This document shows, in pieces, positions 2,698 to 11,119 of a DNA stretch of 47,820 nt. The stretch spans positions 1 through 47,820 of the forward strand of contig CAZBPC010000018.1 in the NCBI GenBank assembly GCA_964493715.1. Reading direction: 5' to 3'. Origin of the DNA: an uncultured archaeon (GTDB taxonomy: Archaea > Asgardarchaeota > Lokiarchaeia > Sigyniarchaeales > SOKP01). A model generated the notes under the pieces. The model worked only from the letters and a program-made list of their open reading frames with translations, searched no databases and was not told the DNA's origin. How positions within the stretch are numbered: the stretch's first letter is position 1; the number at the start of each line of letters is the position of its first letter. Both the position numbers and the translations under genes were made by a program.

Positions 2698-4164
2698 TTG
2701 ATTTATGATGTAATTATTATCGGAGGTGGCGTGATTGGTTGCTGTATAGCACGAACGCTCTCCAAATATGATATTAAGATTGCTTTATTAGAAAAAGAAG
2801 TTGATATTGCTTCGGGTACTACAAAAGCTAATTCAGGAGTTGTTCATGCAGGTTATGCTGCTGAAAGAGAGTATATAAAACGTGACATGTGCATCAAAGG
2901 AAATAAAATGTACACTCAAGCTGCTGAGGAGCTTAATTTTCCTTTTAAACGGATTGGTTCTTTTGTAGTAGCACTAGAAGATAATCAAATTAAAGAATTA
3001 GAAAAAGAACGGAACTATGGGATTCAAGATGGCATTTTAGGTTTAGAATTAATCCTGGATAAGAAAAAAATAAAACATATGGAGCCAAATTTAACTGATG
3101 ACGTGGTAGGAGTACTTCATGCACCATCCGCAGGGATTGTAAGTCCATATGAGATGACTTTCGCATTAGCAGAGAACGCAGCAATGAATGGCGTAAAATT
3201 TTTTCGGAATCATAAGGTTAAAAAAATTCGTCATCAAAATTATATTTTCGATCTAAAAACTAAGCAAGGTGATTTTAAAGCTCACAATGTTATCAATGCA
3301 GCTGGTTTATTTGGATCTAAGATTTCTAAGATGGTTGGGCTAGATTATTTTGATATAATGCCTCGTAAAGGCGAATATATTTTATTTGATCGCAATGCTA
3401 TGCATCTGAACAAAATTCTGTTTCCAACAGCAACAAAAGTATCAAAAGGAATATTAGTTTGCCCTACTGCCCACGAAAATACTTTTGTGGGACCAAATGC
3501 TCAAAACATATCAGATGAAAAAGATACTTCAACAACAGAAGCGGGTTTAAAAGAAATTCTCGAAGGTGCACGAAAATTAGTACCTAAACTGCCTGTACGT
3601 GCCTCGATTAGAAACTTTGCTGGTTTGAGAGCAATACCAGATAGTTATGACTTTATCATTGATAATACTGATGTGTATGGATTCATCAACGTTGCAGGGA
3701 TTCTTTCTCCTGGATTGACATCTTGTTATGCAATTGCAGAGAGAGTGACTGAATATCTCGAGTTACTTGGTGTTGAATTGAAACCCAATGACAATTATAA
3801 CCCTATTCGACCTAAACCGGAGCGCTTTAAGAATTTTTCTAAAGATGTACTAGATCAAAAAATTAGAAAAGATCCTGCTTGGGGGCGAATAATCTGTAGG
3901 TGCGAGACTATTCCCGAAAGAGAGATTTTAAATGCTATTTATGCCCCTGTAGGCGCAATAACTGTAGATGGAGTTAAATTTCGTTGTAGACCTGGAATGG
4001 GCAGGTGTCAAGGTGGTTTTTGCCGCCCAAGAGTTATGGAAATTCTCGCAAGAGAACTAAACATTCCGTATCAAGAGGTAACTAAAAAAAGTGAGGATTC
4101 ACATTTCTTAGTCTCTAAAACCAAGGATGAATTACTTAGAAAAATAGAGAGAGGTGAAGAATAA
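2698..4164 (+). CDS. FAD-dependent glycerol-3-phosphate dehydrogenase-like oxidoreductase with C-terminal BFD-like [2Fe-2S] domain
   Basis: GGGVIG Rossmann motif, TTKANSGVVHAG, SPGLT, and C-terminal ICRCE...GRCQGGFC. SD-like AAGGAG upstream of the TTG start. Confidence 0.85.
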   Translation: MIYDVIIIGGGVIGCCIARTLSKYDIKIALLEKEVDIASGTTKANSGVVHAGYAAEREYIKRDMCIKGNKMYTQAAEELNFPFKRIGSFVVALEDNQIKELEKERNYGIQDGILGLELILDKKKIKHMEPNLTDDVVGVLHAPSAGIVSPYEMTFALAENAAMNGVKFFRNHKVKKIRHQNYIFDLKTKQGDFKAHNVINAAGLFGSKISKMVGLDYFDIMPRKGEYILFDRNAMHLNKILFPTATKVSKGILVCPTAHENTFVGPNAQNISDEKDTSTTEAGLKEILEGARKLVPKLPVRASIRNFAGLRAIPDSYDFIIDNTDVYGFINVAGILSPGLTSCYAIAERVTEYLELLGVELKPNDNYNPIRPKPERFKNFSKDVLDQKIRKDPAWGRIICRCETIPEREILNAIYAPVGAITVDGVKFRCRPGMGRCQGGFCRPRVMEILARELNIPYQEVTKKSEDSHFLVSKTKDELLRKIERGEE

Positions 4165-5462
4165 TGAAAAGTTATAAATCAGATGTCCTTGTTATTGGTG
4201 CTGGGGCTGCAGGTTTAGCAGCGGCGATAGAAGTTAAAAAAGCGGGGTTAAAAGTATTAATAGTAGAAAGAGATAAAGAATTAGGCGGAATTACATTGCA
4301 GTGCATTCATAATGGTTTTGGTCTTAAGGAATTTGAAGAAGAATTAACAGGACCTGAGTATGCTCAAAGATTTATTAATCAGGTTAAAGATTTGAAAATT
4401 CCTTACATATTAGATACAATGGTTATAGAAATTACAAAGGATAAAAAAATATATGCTGTAAACAATAAAGAAGGTCTTATTGAAGTTAGTGCAAAAGCAA
4501 TTATTCTCGCTATGGGGTGCCGTGAAAGAACAAGGGGTGCCATTAATATTCCTGGATTTAGACCCGCAGGAATATATACTGCTGGACAAGCACAAAGATT
4601 TGTCAATATTGAAGGGTATTTACCGGGACATACATTTGTCATTTTAGGAAGTGGTGATATCGGAATGATAATGGCTCGCCGATTAACTTGGGAAGGATGT
4701 GAAGTAAAAGCCGTGGTTGAGATCCAACCATATGTTAGCGGACTTCTGAGAAACCAGGTTCAATGTTTGGAGGATTATGATATTCCCTTAATCACTAGTC
4801 ATACTGTGACTAAAATTCACGGAAGGGATAGATTACAAGGAGTGTCGATAGCAAAGGTTACAAAGGACTATGATCGAATAATAGGATCTGAAAGATTTTT
4901 TGAATGTGATACATTGCTACTTTCAGTAGGCTTAATTCCTGAAAATGAATTAACACTACAAGCTGGAGCTTCCCTTTCCCAAAATGGAGGTCCATTGGTA
5001 GATAATAATTTAGAGACTACAATTGAAGGGATTTTTGCATGTGGGAATGTCCTTCAAGTTCATGATTTAGTTGATATGGTTTCTTCTGAAGCTAAAAGAG
5101 CAGGAAAAAATGTTGTGGATTATATTCAAAATAGTTATGATAAATCAATATCAAAAGAAGAGAAGATCAAATGCATCCCTGGTGAAAATATTAATTACGT
5201 GAAACCAGATCAAATAAACAAGAGAGATATGGAATCAAATATCATTTTTAATTTTCGAGTAAAGTATCCTGATCGAAGAGTACTCATTCAATTTAAGGAT
5301 GAGACCAATAAAGTCATATACAAACGAAAAAGAGTGTATGTGATTCCTAGTGAAATGATCGAATTGGATCTCAATCTGAAAGAATTTGGGGTGGACATGA
5401 CAATTAAAGAAATACGAATAGAAGTGATTCCTCGTCCTGAAGTTTTGATAGAGGAGGATTAA
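4164..5462 (+). CDS. NAD(P)/FAD-dependent oxidoreductase, partner subunit of the glycerol-3-phosphate dehydrogenase-like operon
   Basis: GAGAAG, QCIHNGFG, AMGCRERTRG, GSGDIG and FACGNV motifs. TAATG stop/start overlap with the preceding gene. Confidence 0.85.
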   Translation: MKSYKSDVLVIGAGAAGLAAAIEVKKAGLKVLIVERDKELGGITLQCIHNGFGLKEFEEELTGPEYAQRFINQVKDLKIPYILDTMVIEITKDKKIYAVNNKEGLIEVSAKAIILAMGCRERTRGAINIPGFRPAGIYTAGQAQRFVNIEGYLPGHTFVILGSGDIGMIMARRLTWEGCEVKAVVEIQPYVSGLLRNQVQCLEDYDIPLITSHTVTKIHGRDRLQGVSIAKVTKDYDRIIGSERFFECDTLLLSVGLIPENELTLQAGASLSQNGGPLVDNNLETTIEGIFACGNVLQVHDLVDMVSSEAKRAGKNVVDYIQNSYDKSISKEEKIKCIPGENINYVKPDQINKRDMESNIIFNFRVKYPDRRVLIQFKDETNKVIYKRKRVYVIPSEMIELDLNLKEFGVDMTIKEIRIEVIPRPEVLIEED

Positions 5463-5468
5463 TACGAG

Positions 5469-5855
5469 GTGAAAAAAATTTCTGAAGTAAGTACTGTTAA
5501 AGTTATCCGGTGCATTGTATGCCCTACGGGTTGCGAAATTAAAGTTCTTAAAGATCCAAATAATAAGATTACATTTGAAGGATATACATGCAAACGGGGA
5601 TTAGAATATGCCGAACAAGAATTTCATGAACCTAAAAGAATTCTTACTACTACAATAAGGGTAGAAAATGGGTTTATTCCCTTAATTCCCGTAAGAACTG
5701 ATAAACCAATACTTAAAGATAAGTTAAATGAGGCACTGATGATAATCGCACAAACAGTCGTAAATGCTCCCATAAAAATGGGAGATGTATTGATTAAAAA
5801 CATTTTAAACAGTGGTGCTAATATTATAGCAAGTAGAGATATAGCTACAAGTTAA
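5469..5855 (+). CDS. DUF1667-family CxxC protein (third subunit of the operon)
   Basis: CIVCPTGC...GYTCKRG...EPKRILTTT...PVRTDKPI pattern, in the position this family usually holds after the two flavoproteins. Confidence 0.8.
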   Translation: MKKISEVSTVKVIRCIVCPTGCEIKVLKDPNNKITFEGYTCKRGLEYAEQEFHEPKRILTTTIRVENGFIPLIPVRTDKPILKDKLNEALMIIAQTVVNAPIKMGDVLIKNILNSGANIIASRDIATS

Positions 5856-5935: not shown

Positions 5936-6391
5936 ATGGTAGAATTAGATCAGATTTACAAGGTTTATCCAAATCTCTATATAGGCGCGTATTGGCCCCG
6001 TTTGAATTTTAAATTATTTAAGGAAATAGGCATAACTGCTATCGTCAATTTAATGGAAGATAATTATTATGATCCCACAGATCTAGGATTTGAATATCTA
6101 TATAAAGGATTTCCTGATGATTGGTATCCTCCACATCGCTATATTGAAGAGATTTTAAATTTTATAGACGTTCACATAAAAAATGGTAAAGTACTGGTAC
6201 ATTGTGCAATGGGAATTTCTAGAAGTGGTGGAATTATAGTGGCTTGGATAATGAAAAAAAATCCAGAATGGAGTTGGACTCAAGCCTTAAAAACGGTTCA
6301 AAAAGAGCGATTAATTTATCCCGCAATTGAAATAAAGATGGCTATATTAGATTACTTCGAATCTATTGAAGGTTATAGGAGACAAGATTAA
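5936..6391 (+). CDS. Dual-specificity protein phosphatase
   Basis: P-loop VLVHCAMGISRS (HCx5R), with upstream NLYIG and GITAIVNL. Confidence 0.9.
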   Translation: MVELDQIYKVYPNLYIGAYWPRLNFKLFKEIGITAIVNLMEDNYYDPTDLGFEYLYKGFPDDWYPPHRYIEEILNFIDVHIKNGKVLVHCAMGISRSGGIIVAWIMKKNPEWSWTQALKTVQKERLIYPAIEIKMAILDYFESIEGYRRQD

Positions 6392-6409: not shown

Positions 6410-8716
6410 ATGATAAATCTCAAGATGGATGAGGATCAAAGAATTCTTAACGTTTTGATAGCAGGACATGCCCAACATGGAAAAAGTAGTTTAATTCAAG
6501 CAATCTGTGGTGTTTTTCCAGATACTTTAGATTTTGAACTTATTAGAGGTACTACTGTAACATTAAAAGTAATAGAATTCATATTAAATGAGAAAAATAT
6601 AATTATCAATTTTTTAGATAGTCCGGGTCATGCTGATTTCAAGGGTGCAATTGCGTTAGGATTATCGTTCGCTGATTTGTTAATTTTGGTAATTGCTGGA
6701 AATGAAGGTTTTCAAGCAAGAACTTATTGGTTATATGAGAAAGCAAATGAGATGAAGGTGCCAATTATAATCGCAGCGACAAAAATGGATTTAAGAAACG
6801 CAAATGTCGAAATAATTAAGGAAGAATTAAATAAATTAAATTCAACAAAAAACTACTCCATTTTAGAAACCTCTGCTAAAGAAATTTTTGGGATTGATGA
6901 ATTAATAGATAAAATTACATTATATACAAAAATTAGAACCGGTATAAATGAAAATTTATCATTTATTATTTTAGGTTATGATAACAAGAAAGGTTTTGGT
7001 GAATTATTAAGTATAGGAATCTTATCTGGTAGGATTGAAACTAATTGGATAACTGATAAAATCAGAATACGTTATTTATTATCCTTAAGTGGAAAACCAT
7101 TAAAAAAAGCTTTTGAAGGGCAAATCGTTAAAGTTTCTTTAAACATCAATACAGATTTTGATCTTGGTACTATCTATCGTGAAGGTAAATTCTTTCCTGC
7201 AAATTTTACGGGAACCTTTTCGGAAATTAAACCCAGAAAAGAATATTTTATCACGATTAATGATCCAATACGATTTAAAATAGGTATAGATACCTTAGAG
7301 AAATTAAAAAAAGTAATACCTTCTTTCGACTTTTACGTGGATAATGGAACCATAAGTATATTAGTATTAGGTGATTTGCAGTTTGAATTCATCAAGAAAA
7401 ATCTTGAGGAATTAATTGAATTTCAAATTGTAGGTTCTAAAATAAAAGGAATTGTGACCATTAATTCAATAAGTGAAGCTAAATTTGGAACTGCTCATGT
7501 ACGTATTGTTCCTAGGTGTGCAAACAACTTAACGATATCAAGAGGAATTGATGAGCTAATTGAACCAAAACTAATTGATATTTTAGGTGTTTCTGTCGCA
7601 AAACAAGCATTCCATATTGACGGTCTTCACGTTAACATTTATTCAGGAAAGAATGAAGACGATATTGCCCAAGCGATTGCGAAAGCTATTGAAAAAACTA
7701 ACCTTATAAAAATTGTACCTTTTCAAGATGTTTTAGTCAAAGTTGATAATCAACACGATTTATTTCCAATTATTGAGAAATATAACATAGAAGTGTTGCA
7801 CCAAGATATACACAAAAATTTCTTTCTCCAAGTAAAAATTGATGATTTTGATCCATTCTTCAATTCTTTGATGAAAATTTCAAATGGTATGGCAGAAATA
7901 AATCTTTTTCACTTTGACAAAGAAGAATTGGCGCTTGCTGTAGATCCTGGAACTCGACATTTTGGATTTTGTTTAATGGAGCAAGGAGAACTTCCTTCTT
8001 TATGGTATGTAAATCTCAAAAATAAAATAAATAATATTAAGTCATGGAATAGCTCTCAAAAAACTCTTAAAAGGGAACTAGATACATTTGTGCAATATAA
8101 AAAAGATTTGATTAAGAAAATCTTCATTGGAAATGGTCCAGGGTCAGAATTTATAGTAGAATTTCTCAAGGTGTTTTTCGATCTACAAGAAGATAATAAG
8201 GAAACCATTGAACAGAGATTTGCCTCTCCAGAAATTTATCTCGTAGATGAATACAAGACAACAAAAGAAGCATTATATCATCTTCAAAATGGTAAACTCG
8301 TAAATGAAGTGCACTCTAAAGGATTCGTTGATCATGCGATTGCTGCTTTAATAATTGCTAAAAGAGGTATAAAGGGAGAGATTATTAAAATTCAAAAACC
8401 GCCAATTAAAAAATTGCATGATTATATCATCGAAAATTACAGCGGTTCGTATTCCTTTTCTAGTATTCATAAAATAGATAGTTTAGATGATATCAAGCGA
8501 GGTATTTACTTAAGAGTCAAGGATTCAGCAAAACTTGATTCCCGGTTAACTAATGGGGATATCATTGCATTTACGGGCTTTGGACAAGGATATGGAGAGT
8601 TACATGCTAATACGATTTCGGGTAATAAAATTATCGTAAAATTTCAAGGAAATGTAAAAATAAGAAGAGATTTTTTTAAGATCTTTACACCTATGAAAGA
8701 AAGAAGTCATCCTTAA
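6410..8716 (+). CDS. Translation-factor-class GTPase fused to a YqgF/Tex-like RNase H-fold domain
   Basis: G1 GHAQHGKS, G2 RGTT, G3 DSPGH, G4 TKMD, G5 SAK. The C-terminal half has LAVDPGTRHFG, IFIGNG, LVDEYKTT and VDHAIAALII. Confidence 0.75.
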   Translation: MINLKMDEDQRILNVLIAGHAQHGKSSLIQAICGVFPDTLDFELIRGTTVTLKVIEFILNEKNIIINFLDSPGHADFKGAIALGLSFADLLILVIAGNEGFQARTYWLYEKANEMKVPIIIAATKMDLRNANVEIIKEELNKLNSTKNYSILETSAKEIFGIDELIDKITLYTKIRTGINENLSFIILGYDNKKGFGELLSIGILSGRIETNWITDKIRIRYLLSLSGKPLKKAFEGQIVKVSLNINTDFDLGTIYREGKFFPANFTGTFSEIKPRKEYFITINDPIRFKIGIDTLEKLKKVIPSFDFYVDNGTISILVLGDLQFEFIKKNLEELIEFQIVGSKIKGIVTINSISEAKFGTAHVRIVPRCANNLTISRGIDELIEPKLIDILGVSVAKQAFHIDGLHVNIYSGKNEDDIAQAIAKAIEKTNLIKIVPFQDVLVKVDNQHDLFPIIEKYNIEVLHQDIHKNFFLQVKIDDFDPFFNSLMKISNGMAEINLFHFDKEELALAVDPGTRHFGFCLMEQGELPSLWYVNLKNKINNIKSWNSSQKTLKRELDTFVQYKKDLIKKIFIGNGPGSEFIVEFLKVFFDLQEDNKETIEQRFASPEIYLVDEYKTTKEALYHLQNGKLVNEVHSKGFVDHAIAALIIAKRGIKGEIIKIQKPPIKKLHDYIIENYSGSYSFSSIHKIDSLDDIKRGIYLRVKDSAKLDSRLTNGDIIAFTGFGQGYGELHANTISGNKIIVKFQGNVKIRRDFFKIFTPMKERSHP

Positions 8717-8832: not shown

Positions 8833-9153
8833 ATGATTGAATTTGAAGAGAAAATTTTATCACTATTAGAAACAATAAATGAAAAATTAGACAAACTTTT
8901 AGATTTAAAGACTTCTATACATTCAATTCCTGAAAATAGAACCACAGTAAAGCCGTCTGAATTAGTCGAGAGACAACAGGAAGAAGAACGAGCAATTGAG
9001 AAACCTCCTGTGGAAGGAAGAAGAATGTGTCCAAAATGTGGTGGTACAGCATTTAATACGATTGAAGATCAATCCCAAGTTTTATTTCAGCAAGGCGGGA
9101 TGAAAATATATGCTAAATCGTATATTTGCCGCCAGTGTGGTACCAAAGTATAA
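8833..9153 (+). CDS. Small protein with C-terminal zinc ribbon
   Basis: CPKC...CRQC pair and an N-terminal short amphipathic helix. Confidence 0.7.
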   Translation: MIEFEEKILSLLETINEKLDKLLDLKTSIHSIPENRTTVKPSELVERQQEEERAIEKPPVEGRRMCPKCGGTAFNTIEDQSQVLFQQGGMKIYAKSYICRQCGTKV

Positions 9154-9319: not shown

Positions 9320-10417
9320 GTGAACGAAATTCCTCCAATGAGAATTAAGAATGTGTTTAGATATTTAAGGATCTTCACCTTGAACAAATTTACTCAAATA
9401 AAAGTACCTTATTCTGCCCAAATCGAGGTAACATTGCGTTGTAATGCTGTTTGTCCTTTCTGTTCTTTTCCATTATTACCTAATCGTATTATCTCTAAAG
9501 AAATGACAACACAACAAATAAAAGATATAATTGATCAAATTGCTAAATTAGGAGTCACAACCTTATCATTTACTGGTGGAGAACCCACCTTAAGAAAAGA
9601 TCTTCCTGATTTAATCTATCACGCAGGAGTAGTTCATAATTTTATGAATGGGGTAGCTACAAATGGTTATTTGATGCCTTCCTTACTAAAAAAAAATGGA
9701 GGCTTAGAAGGATTAGATTATCTATTACTTTCTCTTGATTATCCAACTGCAGAATTGCATGATAAAATGAGAGGATTAAGATCATTCCATAAAGTAATAG
9801 AAACAATTGAACTTGCAAATAAAAGAGATAAAAAAGTAATTATTAGCACCGTTGTTATGAATGATAATATTCATTTACTTGATTCAATATGCGAATTAGC
9901 AGAAAAATTTAATTGTTCAATAGAATTATTTCCATGTGAAGATATTATTAGGGATTATCATGGATTAACTTATCAAATAAAGGATATCGAGAGTTTAATT
10001 CCAAAAGTATCTGTTTGGGCTAACTTAATGTTAAAATTGAGAGAAAAATATAAAAACATTCTAACTGATCCTATCAGTATCGCTGTGGTGGGAAGAGGAG
10101 GTTTTGGAGGATATCCTAATTATCATCAGAATTTACTACGTTGCTATGTTGCTGAAGCTTATTTATTTGTTAGGCATGATGGCGTTATCGATTATCCTTG
10201 TAAAATACATCCTTTTATGAGTTTTGATGCATTAAAACACCCGATATCTAAAATATATAATTCTAAAGAAGTAAGAGAAATAATGGTAAATCATGATAAT
10301 TATGATTTTTGTAATAAATGCAGATTAGGTTGTGCTATTGCTTCTTCCATGCCTACTCGATGGAAAACCCTTGCTTCTAAATATATTTTGGGGTATTTGC
10401 ATGGAAACTTGAATTGA
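9320..10417 (+). CDS. Radical SAM protein with C-terminal SPASM/Twitch-like Cys cluster
   Basis: CNAVCPFC (CxxxCxxC), FTGGEP, TNG, and C-terminal C...G...PC...CNKCRLGC. Confidence 0.9.
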   Translation: MNEIPPMRIKNVFRYLRIFTLNKFTQIKVPYSAQIEVTLRCNAVCPFCSFPLLPNRIISKEMTTQQIKDIIDQIAKLGVTTLSFTGGEPTLRKDLPDLIYHAGVVHNFMNGVATNGYLMPSLLKKNGGLEGLDYLLLSLDYPTAELHDKMRGLRSFHKVIETIELANKRDKKVIISTVVMNDNIHLLDSICELAEKFNCSIELFPCEDIIRDYHGLTYQIKDIESLIPKVSVWANLMLKLREKYKNILTDPISIAVVGRGGFGGYPNYHQNLLRCYVAEAYLFVRHDGVIDYPCKIHPFMSFDALKHPISKIYNSKEVREIMVNHDNYDFCNKCRLGCAIASSMPTRWKTLASKYILGYLHGNLN

Positions 10418-10510: not shown

Positions 10511-11119
10511 ATGGCTAATGAGATTATAATCTTTCAGATTTTTCTAGTGACCCTAGCTATGGTCGTTTTGAGCAGGATTTTTAATAAAATTACTGGATTG
10601 AATACAGAAAGTGCAAGAGAAATTAGAGAAAAATCAACGGATCTACAAGAACGAATGAAAGCAGCCCAACAAGAAGGAAATGTTCAAGATTTGAGATCAT
10701 TGCAGCAGGAATCAATAGAATTAACAAAAACAATGATGAAAAAACAATTAATTCCCTCATGTGTACAATGTTTCATCTTTTTAGGCATTTTTGGGATATT
10801 AGGACTCTTTTTTGCCCAGTATACAACTGGACTTCTTCCTTTTCCAATCTTATTTTTCGGAAATGGATGGGTTGGTGTATATTTCTTATTTTCAATTTCA
10901 TTATCTCTTTTGTTCTATTTGGCAAAAAGAGTGTACAGAAAAATGACCGGGAAAGAAGATAGAAGAAAAATGGAAAAGCAAGAAATTATGGGAATGTTAA
11001 ATCCAACATCAAGTAATCCTTTGGGTTATATGCAGTTAAATGCAAAACCTTCTGAAGAGATACCTATAGATGATCCTTCTGAAAGGAAAGATTCTTGGAA
11101 AGAAAAAATAAAAAATTAA
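10511..11119 (+). CDS. DUF106 / EMC3-TMCO1 family membrane insertase-like protein (Oxa1 superfamily)
   Basis: TM1, then a cytosolic coiled-coil hairpin (LQERMKAAQQEGN...LQQESIEL...MMKKQLIP), TM2, LPFPI and GWVGVYFLFS TM3. Confidence 0.75.
   Translation: MANEIIIFQIFLVTLAMVVLSRIFNKITGLNTESAREIREKSTDLQERMKAAQQEGNVQDLRSLQQESIELTKTMMKKQLIPSCVQCFIFLGIFGILGLFFAQYTTGLLPFPILFFGNGWVGVYFLFSISLSLLFYLAKRVYRKMTGKEDRRKMEKQEIMGMLNPTSSNPLGYMQLNAKPSEEIPIDDPSERKDSWKEKIKN

Follow-up and report, generated by a model that had tools for sequence, protein, structure and literature searches.

An open reading frame (ORF) of an uncultured Lokiarchaeon encodes a protein in which a five-domain, EF-G-like translational GTPase (trGTPase) body is fused to a YqgF-type nuclease domain and a small basic beta-barrel. 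These are known domains in an undescribed combination, and they form an undescribed trGTPase lineage. The ORF occupies positions 6410..8716 (+) of a stretch of 47,820 nucleotides (the window; contig CAZBPC010000018.1 of assembly GCA_964493715.1), which has a G+C content of ~30%. It runs from an ATG start over 768 amino acids to a stop codon and is present in one copy in the source genome (3.68 Mb in 160 contigs, 100% complete, 3.85% contamination). An earlier note, made from the sequence alone, had described this ORF and read it as a trGTPase joined to a YqgF/Tex-like nuclease domain. The ORF exists: ~97 homologous clusters cover most or all of its length and it is intact in 30 or more independently assembled genomes, which places the fused reading frame far beyond chance. 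From N- to C-terminus the protein consists of a G domain, domains II and III, a short domain IV, domain V, the YqgF domain, a linker, and the basic barrel. Conservation was assessed in two alignments, one of 31 relatives spanning the protein (A1) and one of 36 rows that includes relatives at 31-38% identity (A2).

The G domain (residues 1-175; 6410..6934) is compact and has no G' insertion. Residues 11-172 match the Pfam family GTP_EFTU (E = 1.4e-27) with 96.9 bits against a cut-off of 26.5, so that an EF-Tu-type G domain is present, and the closest PDB sequence matches are the G domains of IF2, LepA, SelB, and TetM. All five motifs (G1 to G5) can be recognised: GHAQHGKS, a G2 region that reads RGTT and includes T49, DSPGH, TKMD, and SAK. 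In A1 the residues G19, H20, G24, K25, S26, T49, D70, G73, H74, K125, D127, and S155 are invariant (31/31 rows). These include the catalytic histidine directly after DxxG, H74 of DSPGH. The trGTPase hallmarks that had been read from the N-terminal sequence are therefore borne out. TrGTPases are activated at the GTPase centre of the ribosome. A predicted complex of residues 1-270 with the C-terminal half of the genome's stalk protein aP1, run without controls, scored 0.00.

The ~330 residues of intermediate domains counted in the earlier note correspond to residues 176-505. An AlphaFold2 (AF2) model of residues 175-505 (predicted local distance difference test, pLDDT, of 79.2) resolves into four modules: a beta-barrel, a beta-alpha-beta-beta-alpha-beta domain, four strands followed by alpha-beta-alpha, and a second ferredoxin-like domain. 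When this model was compared with the PDB using Foldseek, it matched EF-G, archaeal EF-2, and Snu114 over 370-420 columns (best E = 5.5e-16). In a VIA structural alignment, model residues 95-329 were superposed on residues 404-674 of Staphylococcus aureus EF-G, which we take to be its domains III-V, over 229 residues with a Z-score of 13.6 and a root-mean-square deviation (rmsd) of ~10 Å, this large value reflecting a difference in domain orientations. LepA, which lacks domain IV, aligned over fewer residues than EF-G did.

The first of these modules is domain II (residues 176-268; 6935..7213), modelled as an all-beta segment at 184-262. In VIA it superposes on domain II of IF2 and EF-Pyl with an rmsd of 1.9-2.2 over 78-80 residues, the NCBIfam selB alignment covers it up to residue 257, and a relative from Methanopyrus passes the Pfam family EF-G_D2 (31.4 bits against a cut-off of 27). 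Domain III (residues 269-345; 7214..7444) has the beta-alpha-beta-beta-alpha-beta order and was recovered by AF2, Foldseek, and VIA. An hhalign comparison of the A1 profile with a LepA profile (99.65%, E = 5.2e-25, 328 columns) runs over query residues 7-344, that is, through the G domain, domain II, and domain III, and pairs the domain III stretch GDLQFEFIKKNLE with LepA GLLHMEIIQERLE. The domain IV-like module (residues 346-430; 7445..7699) is short, with four strands and then alpha-beta-alpha, and is assigned from the AF2 secondary structure and the VIA alignment with EF-G. The ferredoxin-like domain V (residues 431-505; 7700..7924) was found by AF2, Foldseek, and VIA. The match to an aEF2/EF-G profile was confined to the G domain (E = 5.7e-16, 137 columns), which we attribute to the missing G' insertion. 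Members of the EF2 family reach with their distal domains into the intersubunit space. A beta-barrel domain II next to the G domain is a defining trait of trGTPases according to the available part of a 2015 survey (PMC4342817), and it is present here (AF2, VIA, and hhalign with LepA). So is the arrangement of the EF2 family, with ferredoxin-like domains III and V after domain II (Foldseek, VIA, and the LepA alignment through domain III). The trGTPase reading of the N-terminal part is thus supported by Pfam, Foldseek, VIA, and hhalign and can be refined to an EF-G-like five-domain body.

Snu114 has the highest identity (18-19%) among the structural matches to domains III-V. A precursor of Snu114/Prp8 was considered and rejected, since Snu114 derives from eukaryotic EF-2 according to the accessible text of a 2018 paper on Asgard EF-2 (PMC6143161) and the present family also occurs in Methanopyrus.

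We compared the protein with the trGTPase subfamilies EF-G, LepA, TypA, RF3, Tet, SelB, IF-2, aIF5B, aEF1A, and aIF2-gamma. Its NCBIfam scores lie far from the respective cut-offs: selB, 83.8 against 242.25; IF-2, 77 against 424.4; lepA, 61.3 against 533.9; TypA, 51.4 against 757.3; and EF-G, 50.9 against 583. Among the best 25 of 42 NCBIfam families, no cut-off of a named trGTPase equivalog was passed, only that of the generic small_GTP domain model. The earlier note had proposed a trGTPase phylogeny, and a maximum-likelihood tree of the G domain and domain II was built from 30 sequences (264 columns; LG+F+G4; 1000 ultrafast bootstraps; unrooted). References were eight trGTPases from Escherichia coli, five from the source genome, and eight IF2, SelB, or LepA database matches; one truncated match from the genome itself and a second tuf copy were left out. 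The nine members of the family were monophyletic (support of 100), with the Methanopyrus protein as sister to the other eight. Their clade joins the internal branch between a group of EF-Tu, aEF1A, CysN, and SelB together with IF2 and aIF5B (94) and a group of LepA, BipA, RF3, EF-G, and aEF2 (97). Attachment between two supported trGTPase groups suggests that the family is a separate deep lineage and is not nested in the EF2 family. Depending on the root it could be the sister of the EF2 family, which would fit the domains III-V common to both, with the long branches as a caveat to this placement. By scores and phylogeny alike, the family is outside every named trGTPase subfamily sampled.

The source genome also contains a second EF-2-like gene (G000:C76:4749-5348 (-); locus L098) with an open frame of 739 amino acids and one in-frame TAA near the N-terminus. 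In the tree it groups with the aEF2 of the genome (99), and it could correspond to the Asgard EF-2 paralogue reported in the available text of PMC6143161, with either a sequencing error or a real break.

The YqgF/RuvX-type domain follows the GTPase body at residues 506-655 (7925..8374). An AF2 model of residues 490-768 (pLDDT 72.8, and 87-94 in most core blocks) has the order beta-beta-beta-alpha-beta-alpha-beta-alpha, then a low-confidence linker, and then a confident five-strand barrel. Foldseek matched this model to TsaB/YeaZ, Tex, RuvX, RuvC, Spt6, and Ydc2 at E-values of 1e-4 to 1e-3. In a VIA search of the nuclease-domain model that covered 48,161 representative chains, the top match was the YqgF domain of Tex (Z = 11.7, 128 residues aligned), followed by yeast pantothenate kinase CAB1, an unrelated enzyme (11.1), D. 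radiodurans YqgF (10.2), Spt6 (10.1), a chloroplast resolvase (9.9), phage RuvC and Mycobacterium tuberculosis RuvX (both 9.6), the Bacillus subtilis YqgF homologue (1vhx; 9.4), and E. coli YqgF (9.3). Further RNase H-fold and sugar-kinase-like (ASKHA) proteins score just below these. The VIA and Foldseek matches make the RNase H fold of the C-terminal region certain, while the assignment to the YqgF subfamily rests on residues.

The motif set that the earlier note had placed near 7930-8370 lies inside that range: its core motifs, from AVDPG to VDHAIAA, fall at nucleotides 7943-8347, and the longer conserved stretches around them at ~7940-8360 (residues 510-650). It consists of AVDPGTRHFGF (with D512), IGNGPGS (574-578), VDEYKTTKEA (613-620), and VDHAIAALIIA (VDHAIAA at 640-646). 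Three carboxylates stand out: every one of the 35 A2 rows that cover the end of beta1 has D512 there, and all 36 rows have both E614, two residues after beta5, and D641, in the first turn of the last helix. All three are kept across relatives down to 31% identity, and H642 and E620 are invariant in the alignment too. Carboxylates on beta1, after beta5, and on the last helix define the YqgF site in the available texts of PMC9601230 and PMC3985635, the latter giving as the YqgF signature that the acidic residue on beta4 of RuvC has been shifted to the end of beta5. In D. radiodurans YqgF, RNase activity was impaired by D22A and blocked by E106A and D122A, and the enzyme cleaved RNA and not the DNA substrates tried (PMC9601230, in part). 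The intact triad matches the residues that this enzyme needs, which we count in favour of RNA cutting.

Profile evidence points the same way in the wider family. Four of seven distant relatives reach the cut-off of the Pfam family RuvX (PF03652), with 33.2, 31.1, 30.7, and 29.2 bits, and three fall below it (23.4, 21.3, and 18.2 bits). Three of the four passing relatives and one below the cut-off cover positions 2-128 of the 134 in the profile. RuvX matches at E-values up to 0.1 were obtained for 11/31 members of A1.

Tex and Spt6 have helix-hairpin-helix and S1 domains as companions of their YqgF domain. No other domain family of Tex or Spt6 was found in the protein among Pfam matches with E-values up to 1. 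The third carboxylate, on the last helix, is missing in Tex and all three are kept in YqgF, as stated in the part of PMC3985635 available to us. Because D641 is invariant, the domain is YqgF-type and not Tex-type. The nuclease part of the reading in the earlier note therefore stands, with Tex, YqgF, Spt6, and RuvX as the nearest relatives of its RNase H fold, and is refined from YqgF/Tex-like to YqgF-type.

The closeness of the Tex and Spt6 domains in structure bears on a different reading, in which the YqgF domain and the barrel would be an RNA-binding module as in Tex/Spt6 and the protein a non-cutting ribosome factor that remodels or chaperones in the manner of LepA or BipA under stress. 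LepA is the best sequence-level relative of the body, and an older survey states, in its available part, that nuclease activity of YqgF or Tex had not then been shown (PMC3985635). We regard this reading as improbable, since all three carboxylates are kept in every relative that covers them, in lineages only 31% identical, and Tex lacks the third (PMC3985635, in part). Later work, so far as its text is accessible, also reports that D. radiodurans YqgF needs precisely these carboxylates for its RNase activity (PMC9601230).

The RuvC-like proteins among the structural matches raise another alternative, a GTP-regulated resolvase or a flap or R-loop nuclease that would work off the ribosome. Its substrates would be DNA or RNA-DNA hybrids, and its EF-G-like body would mimic a nucleic acid or serve as a switch instead of binding the ribosome. 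RuvX homologues from M. tuberculosis and Helicobacter pylori act as Holliday junction resolvases in vitro, and cleavage of RNA/DNA hybrids has been reported for E. coli YqgF (PMC9601230, in part). In fold, RuvC, MOC1, and poxvirus resolvases come close as well (Z = 9.4-9.9 in VIA), and Snu114 is an EF2-like protein that left the ribosome. We nevertheless consider this reading highly unlikely. The invariant H74 is retained together with the full trGTPase motif set, which is tuned to activation by the sarcin-ricin loop of the ribosome. The stretch after beta4 reads GNGPGS and has no acidic residue in place of the RuvC-type glutamate, D641-H642 on the last helix only partly resembles the two acidic/histidine residues of RuvC, and no conserved DNA-repair genes are present in the neighbourhood.

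In many Lokiarchaeal orthologues, a 15-25 residue insertion with a conserved cysteine pair (PCE/DxxxC) lies between the helix after beta4 and beta5 (A1 columns ~605-640). It is missing from the subclade of the source protein, from several other Lokiarchaeal orthologues, and from the distant lineages.

A linker of low confidence with two short helices (residues 656-692; 8375..8485; pLDDT below 50 for model residues 169-198) leads to the C-terminal beta-barrel (residues 693-768; 8486..8713), which accounts for the small beta-rich domain that had been predicted at the C-terminus. The barrel is modelled with five strands and a short helix (pLDDT 81-94). It has an isoelectric point of 9.99 (about 10) and a net charge of +6, and it is basic in all 31 relatives (median net charge of +6, range +2 to +10). 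A structure-atlas search with residues 660-768 gave no usable match. Low-scoring Foldseek matches of the 490-768 model (template-modelling scores of 0.19-0.25) include retroviral integrases, in which an RNase H-like core is combined with a small barrel at the C-terminus, and the likeness of core plus barrel in the model is only a hint.

A distribution survey of the fusion, another check proposed by the earlier note, shows a rare and patchy occurrence. The ~97 clusters mentioned above came from a word-indexed search of 5.8 billion proteins. They have 54-100% identity, most are near full length and some are truncated, and their sources, Lokiarchaeota/Promethearchaeota metagenome-assembled genomes, name them only 'GTP-binding protein'. 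The same search returned three more clusters at 34-35% identity. At E-values up to 1e-30, an exhaustive HMMER scan covering 1.84 billion representatives yielded only 10 proteins. Six are near full length, namely one Loki cluster and five at 31-36% identity, and the other four are fragments; the remaining matches were confined to the G domain or to the G domain and domain II. One divergent cluster, together with a 93%-identical relative, carries the NCBI name 'GTP-binding protein [Methanopyrus sp.]'. When 398 genomes of the phylum were scanned with the C-terminal 279 residues, 35 had a match: 32/132 in the same family as the source genome and 1/1 in each of two other families, with none in the other families of the phylum. 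One of the distant matches is on a sequence named Candidatus Asgardarchaeum abyssi. Among high-quality genomes the count was 11/90. The fusion is therefore not peculiar to one assembly and occurs in many independent assemblies from at least three archaeal lineages. Apparent in-frame TGA breaks had been flagged in two orthologues; the one examined (locus L014) was the normal terminal stop codon of the gene.

The gene is dispensable. In five genomes of the same genus that are 99-100% complete, a search with the A1 profile found standard trGTPases only. One of these five is collinear with the window over 16 genes and keeps both flanking genes, for a phosphatase and a zinc-ribbon protein, ~750 bp apart; no remnant of the GTPase-YqgF gene was found there by tblastn. 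Across 17 loci of the family (the window and 16 others), the dual-specificity phosphatase gene lies upstream in 15 and the 106-residue zinc-ribbon ORF downstream in 16, the contig ending there in the remaining one. This fixed position where the gene is present fits vertical inheritance with repeated loss, not mobility.

Such a distribution is relevant to the possibility that the protein is a dedicated pre-rRNA processing enzyme, an archaeal counterpart of YqgF that would trim the end of pre-16S rRNA in a ribosome-like particle, with the GTPase as a built-in test of the subunit. The ribosome-linked role reported for YqgF is indeed 16S rRNA processing, to which the E. coli protein is linked in work cited by PMC9601230 (seen in part). 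The gene is the sole RuvX-like sequence of the genome, in which no other RuvX match was found, and in one distant lineage an RsmB/F-type 16S rRNA methyltransferase gene lies ~4 kb away on the same strand, across three opposite-strand ORFs. However, the gene is missing from 100/132 genomes of its own family and 363/398 of the phylum, including the five nearly or fully complete ones of the same genus, one of which has intact flanks and no remnant, and a core step would not be lost so often unless it were redundant. The RsmB link is found at a single locus. The dispensable and patchy gene argues against an essential role in ribosome maturation, and we consider a dedicated pre-rRNA enzyme unlikely, though less so than a non-cutting factor.

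Our preferred reading, which we hold to be somewhat probable, is that the protein is a GTP-gated, ribosome-bound RNA nuclease with an accessory role. For its function we infer ribosome binding, RNA as the substrate, GTP gating, and cleavage. The GTP form would dock at the factor-binding site of the ribosome, like other trGTPases with a catalytic histidine. The EF-G-like body would then place the tethered nuclease, the basic barrel would hold RNA, and the YqgF domain would cut ribosome-bound RNA, with GTP hydrolysis, triggered by the ribosome, releasing the factor. The favoured role would be accessory surveillance or rescue, in which mRNA, tRNA, or rRNA is cut on stalled or defective ribosomes. 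Since the cell can do without the gene, we prefer this role to an essential step of maturation.

Several observations weigh against a ribosome-bound RNA nuclease. At G1, glutamine does take the place of the usual aspartate, as noted earlier from the sequence: Q22 is found in 25/31 A1 rows and aspartate in 3/31. G4 reads TKMD instead of NKxD, with T in 30/31 rows. EF2-family proteins may act off the ribosome, as Snu114 does. The neighbouring genes offer no clue to the function, and distant lineages do not keep them. The protein itself scores 19.3 bits against the RuvX cut-off of 29.2, over residues 598-649. Against E. coli YqgF, taken by itself or together with 13 enterobacterial relatives, hhalign gave weak alignments (E = 0.021 and 0.011) that took in the last two motifs only, pairing VDEYKTTKEA with HDERLSTVEA and VDHAIAA with VDSASAV; the E. 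coli profile in this comparison was limited to close enterobacterial sequences (83-100% identity). A C-terminal profile searched against PDB sequences gave no YqgF or RuvX, only two chance-level matches. Some YqgF homologues have been reported as DNA junction resolvases, and the YqgF site comprises only three carboxylates (PMC9601230, in part). The older survey, in its available part, doubted that the YqgF site is functional (PMC3985635).

No paper or characterised family matching the protein was found, in keeping with the suggestion that it is an undescribed factor: no cut-off of a named trGTPase subfamily in NCBIfam was reached, and a full-text literature search on YqgF/RuvX-GTPase fusions in Asgard and other archaea, including Methanopyrus, returned no description. 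In the accessible text of the 2015 trGTPase survey, the terms Methanopyrus, nuclease, YqgF, and RNase H do not occur, an archaeal subfamily of this kind is missing from Table 1, and no nuclease-bearing trGTPase is among its subfamilies (PMC4342817). The 2018 paper on Asgard EF-2 has, in the text available, only aEF-2 and one paralogue, and the word 'nuclease' is absent from it (PMC6143161).

A ribosomal GTPase switch coupled to RNA cleavage would be a new mode of ribosome surveillance, rescue, or rRNA processing. To our knowledge, the named trGTPases work through binding and conformational change, and the nucleases that cut mRNA on stalled ribosomes are poorly defined in archaea, as are some of those that trim rRNA ends there. 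This makes the protein a concrete candidate for such a nuclease. In a more specific and rather doubtful form, the protein would be the first trGTPase with its own catalytic RNA-cutting domain. On archaeal ribosomes that have stalled or are faulty, it would probe the A site or the factor site and make a GTP-licensed cut there in mRNA (or in tRNA or rRNA). If true, archaea would have, in one polypeptide, a counterpart of the endonucleases by which eukaryotes and bacteria initiate no-go decay. Its hosts are Asgard archaea, the closest known relatives of eukaryotes, and Methanopyrus, a genus with a cultured hyperthermophile. The predicted catalytic residues H74, D512, E614, and D641 make the reading testable by clean mutants.

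The phosphatase gene that precedes the GTPase gene (5936-6391 (+)) encodes a Cys-based dual-specificity phosphatase of 151 amino acids (Pfam DSPc, E = 2.2e-17; HCAMGISRSG motif) and ends 18 nt upstream of it. The zinc-ribbon ORF that follows (8833-9153 (+)) has a coiled-coil-like N-terminus, a CPxCG...CxxCG zinc ribbon, and no Pfam match. Both were considered as operon partners and rejected, as they remain where the GTPase gene is absent and are unlinked to it in distant lineages; the linkage of the phosphatase may be only syntenic. The neighbours of two distant Asgard orthologues are unrelated to those of the family loci. A defence or mobile-element reading of the GTPase gene was likewise rejected: its best PADLOC E-value was 0.0062, with no stretch passing the threshold, 27 pattern matches on viral contigs yielded no confirmed relative, and the chromosomal synteny is stable. 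Further upstream, and syntenic across the family, is a three-gene cluster (2698-5855 (+)) for an FAD oxidoreductase with a BFD-like 2Fe-2S domain (488 amino acids), a pyridine-nucleotide disulphide oxidoreductase (432), and a DUF1667 protein (128). Downstream lie genes for a radical SAM protein with a SPASM domain (9320-10417 (+); radical SAM domain at 35-185) and a membrane protein of 202 amino acids (10511-11119 (+)) that is EMC3/TMCO1-like (PF01956, E = 7.7e-12), a family we take to be Oxa1-type insertases. The radical SAM protein has weak PADLOC matches to pVip (viperin) (E = 9e-15) at residues 37-185, which overlap its radical SAM domain, and in many relatives two paralogous genes of ~610 amino acids separate its gene from the zinc-ribbon ORF.

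Compared with known systems, the protein has the domain order G-II-III-IV-V, the catalytic histidine, and the G motifs in common with EF-G and aEF-2. It differs from them in lacking G', in the shortness of all its domains (505 residues for G-V against ~700), in its position outside the EF-G/aEF2 clade on the G domain and domain II, and in a nuclease and barrel of 260 residues that EF-G lacks. Like LepA (EF4) and BipA/TypA it is compact, without G', and carries an extra C-terminal module after domain V, and LepA is its best profile match. However, LepA lacks domain IV, carries no nuclease in its C-terminal domain, and is not sister to the family in the tree; LepA and BipA are bacterial and organellar, whereas the family is archaeal.

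With YqgF/RuvX it shares the RNase H-like fold (Z = 9.3-10.2 for the E. coli, B. subtilis, D. radiodurans, and M. tuberculosis proteins), the placement of the three carboxylates, and the words xDxGTKxxG, DE..(S/T)T.EA, and VD..AA. YqgF is a stand-alone bacterial protein of ~140 residues, whereas here the domain is fused and archaeal, with an insertion between the helix after beta4 and beta5 and an invariant H642 behind the last aspartate. Tex and Spt6 provide the best structural match overall (11.7 and 10.1) and likewise hold a YqgF domain inside a large, multidomain, RNA-associated protein. The present protein is set apart from them by entirely different partner domains and by the third carboxylate, which is kept here and absent from Tex (PMC3985635, in part).

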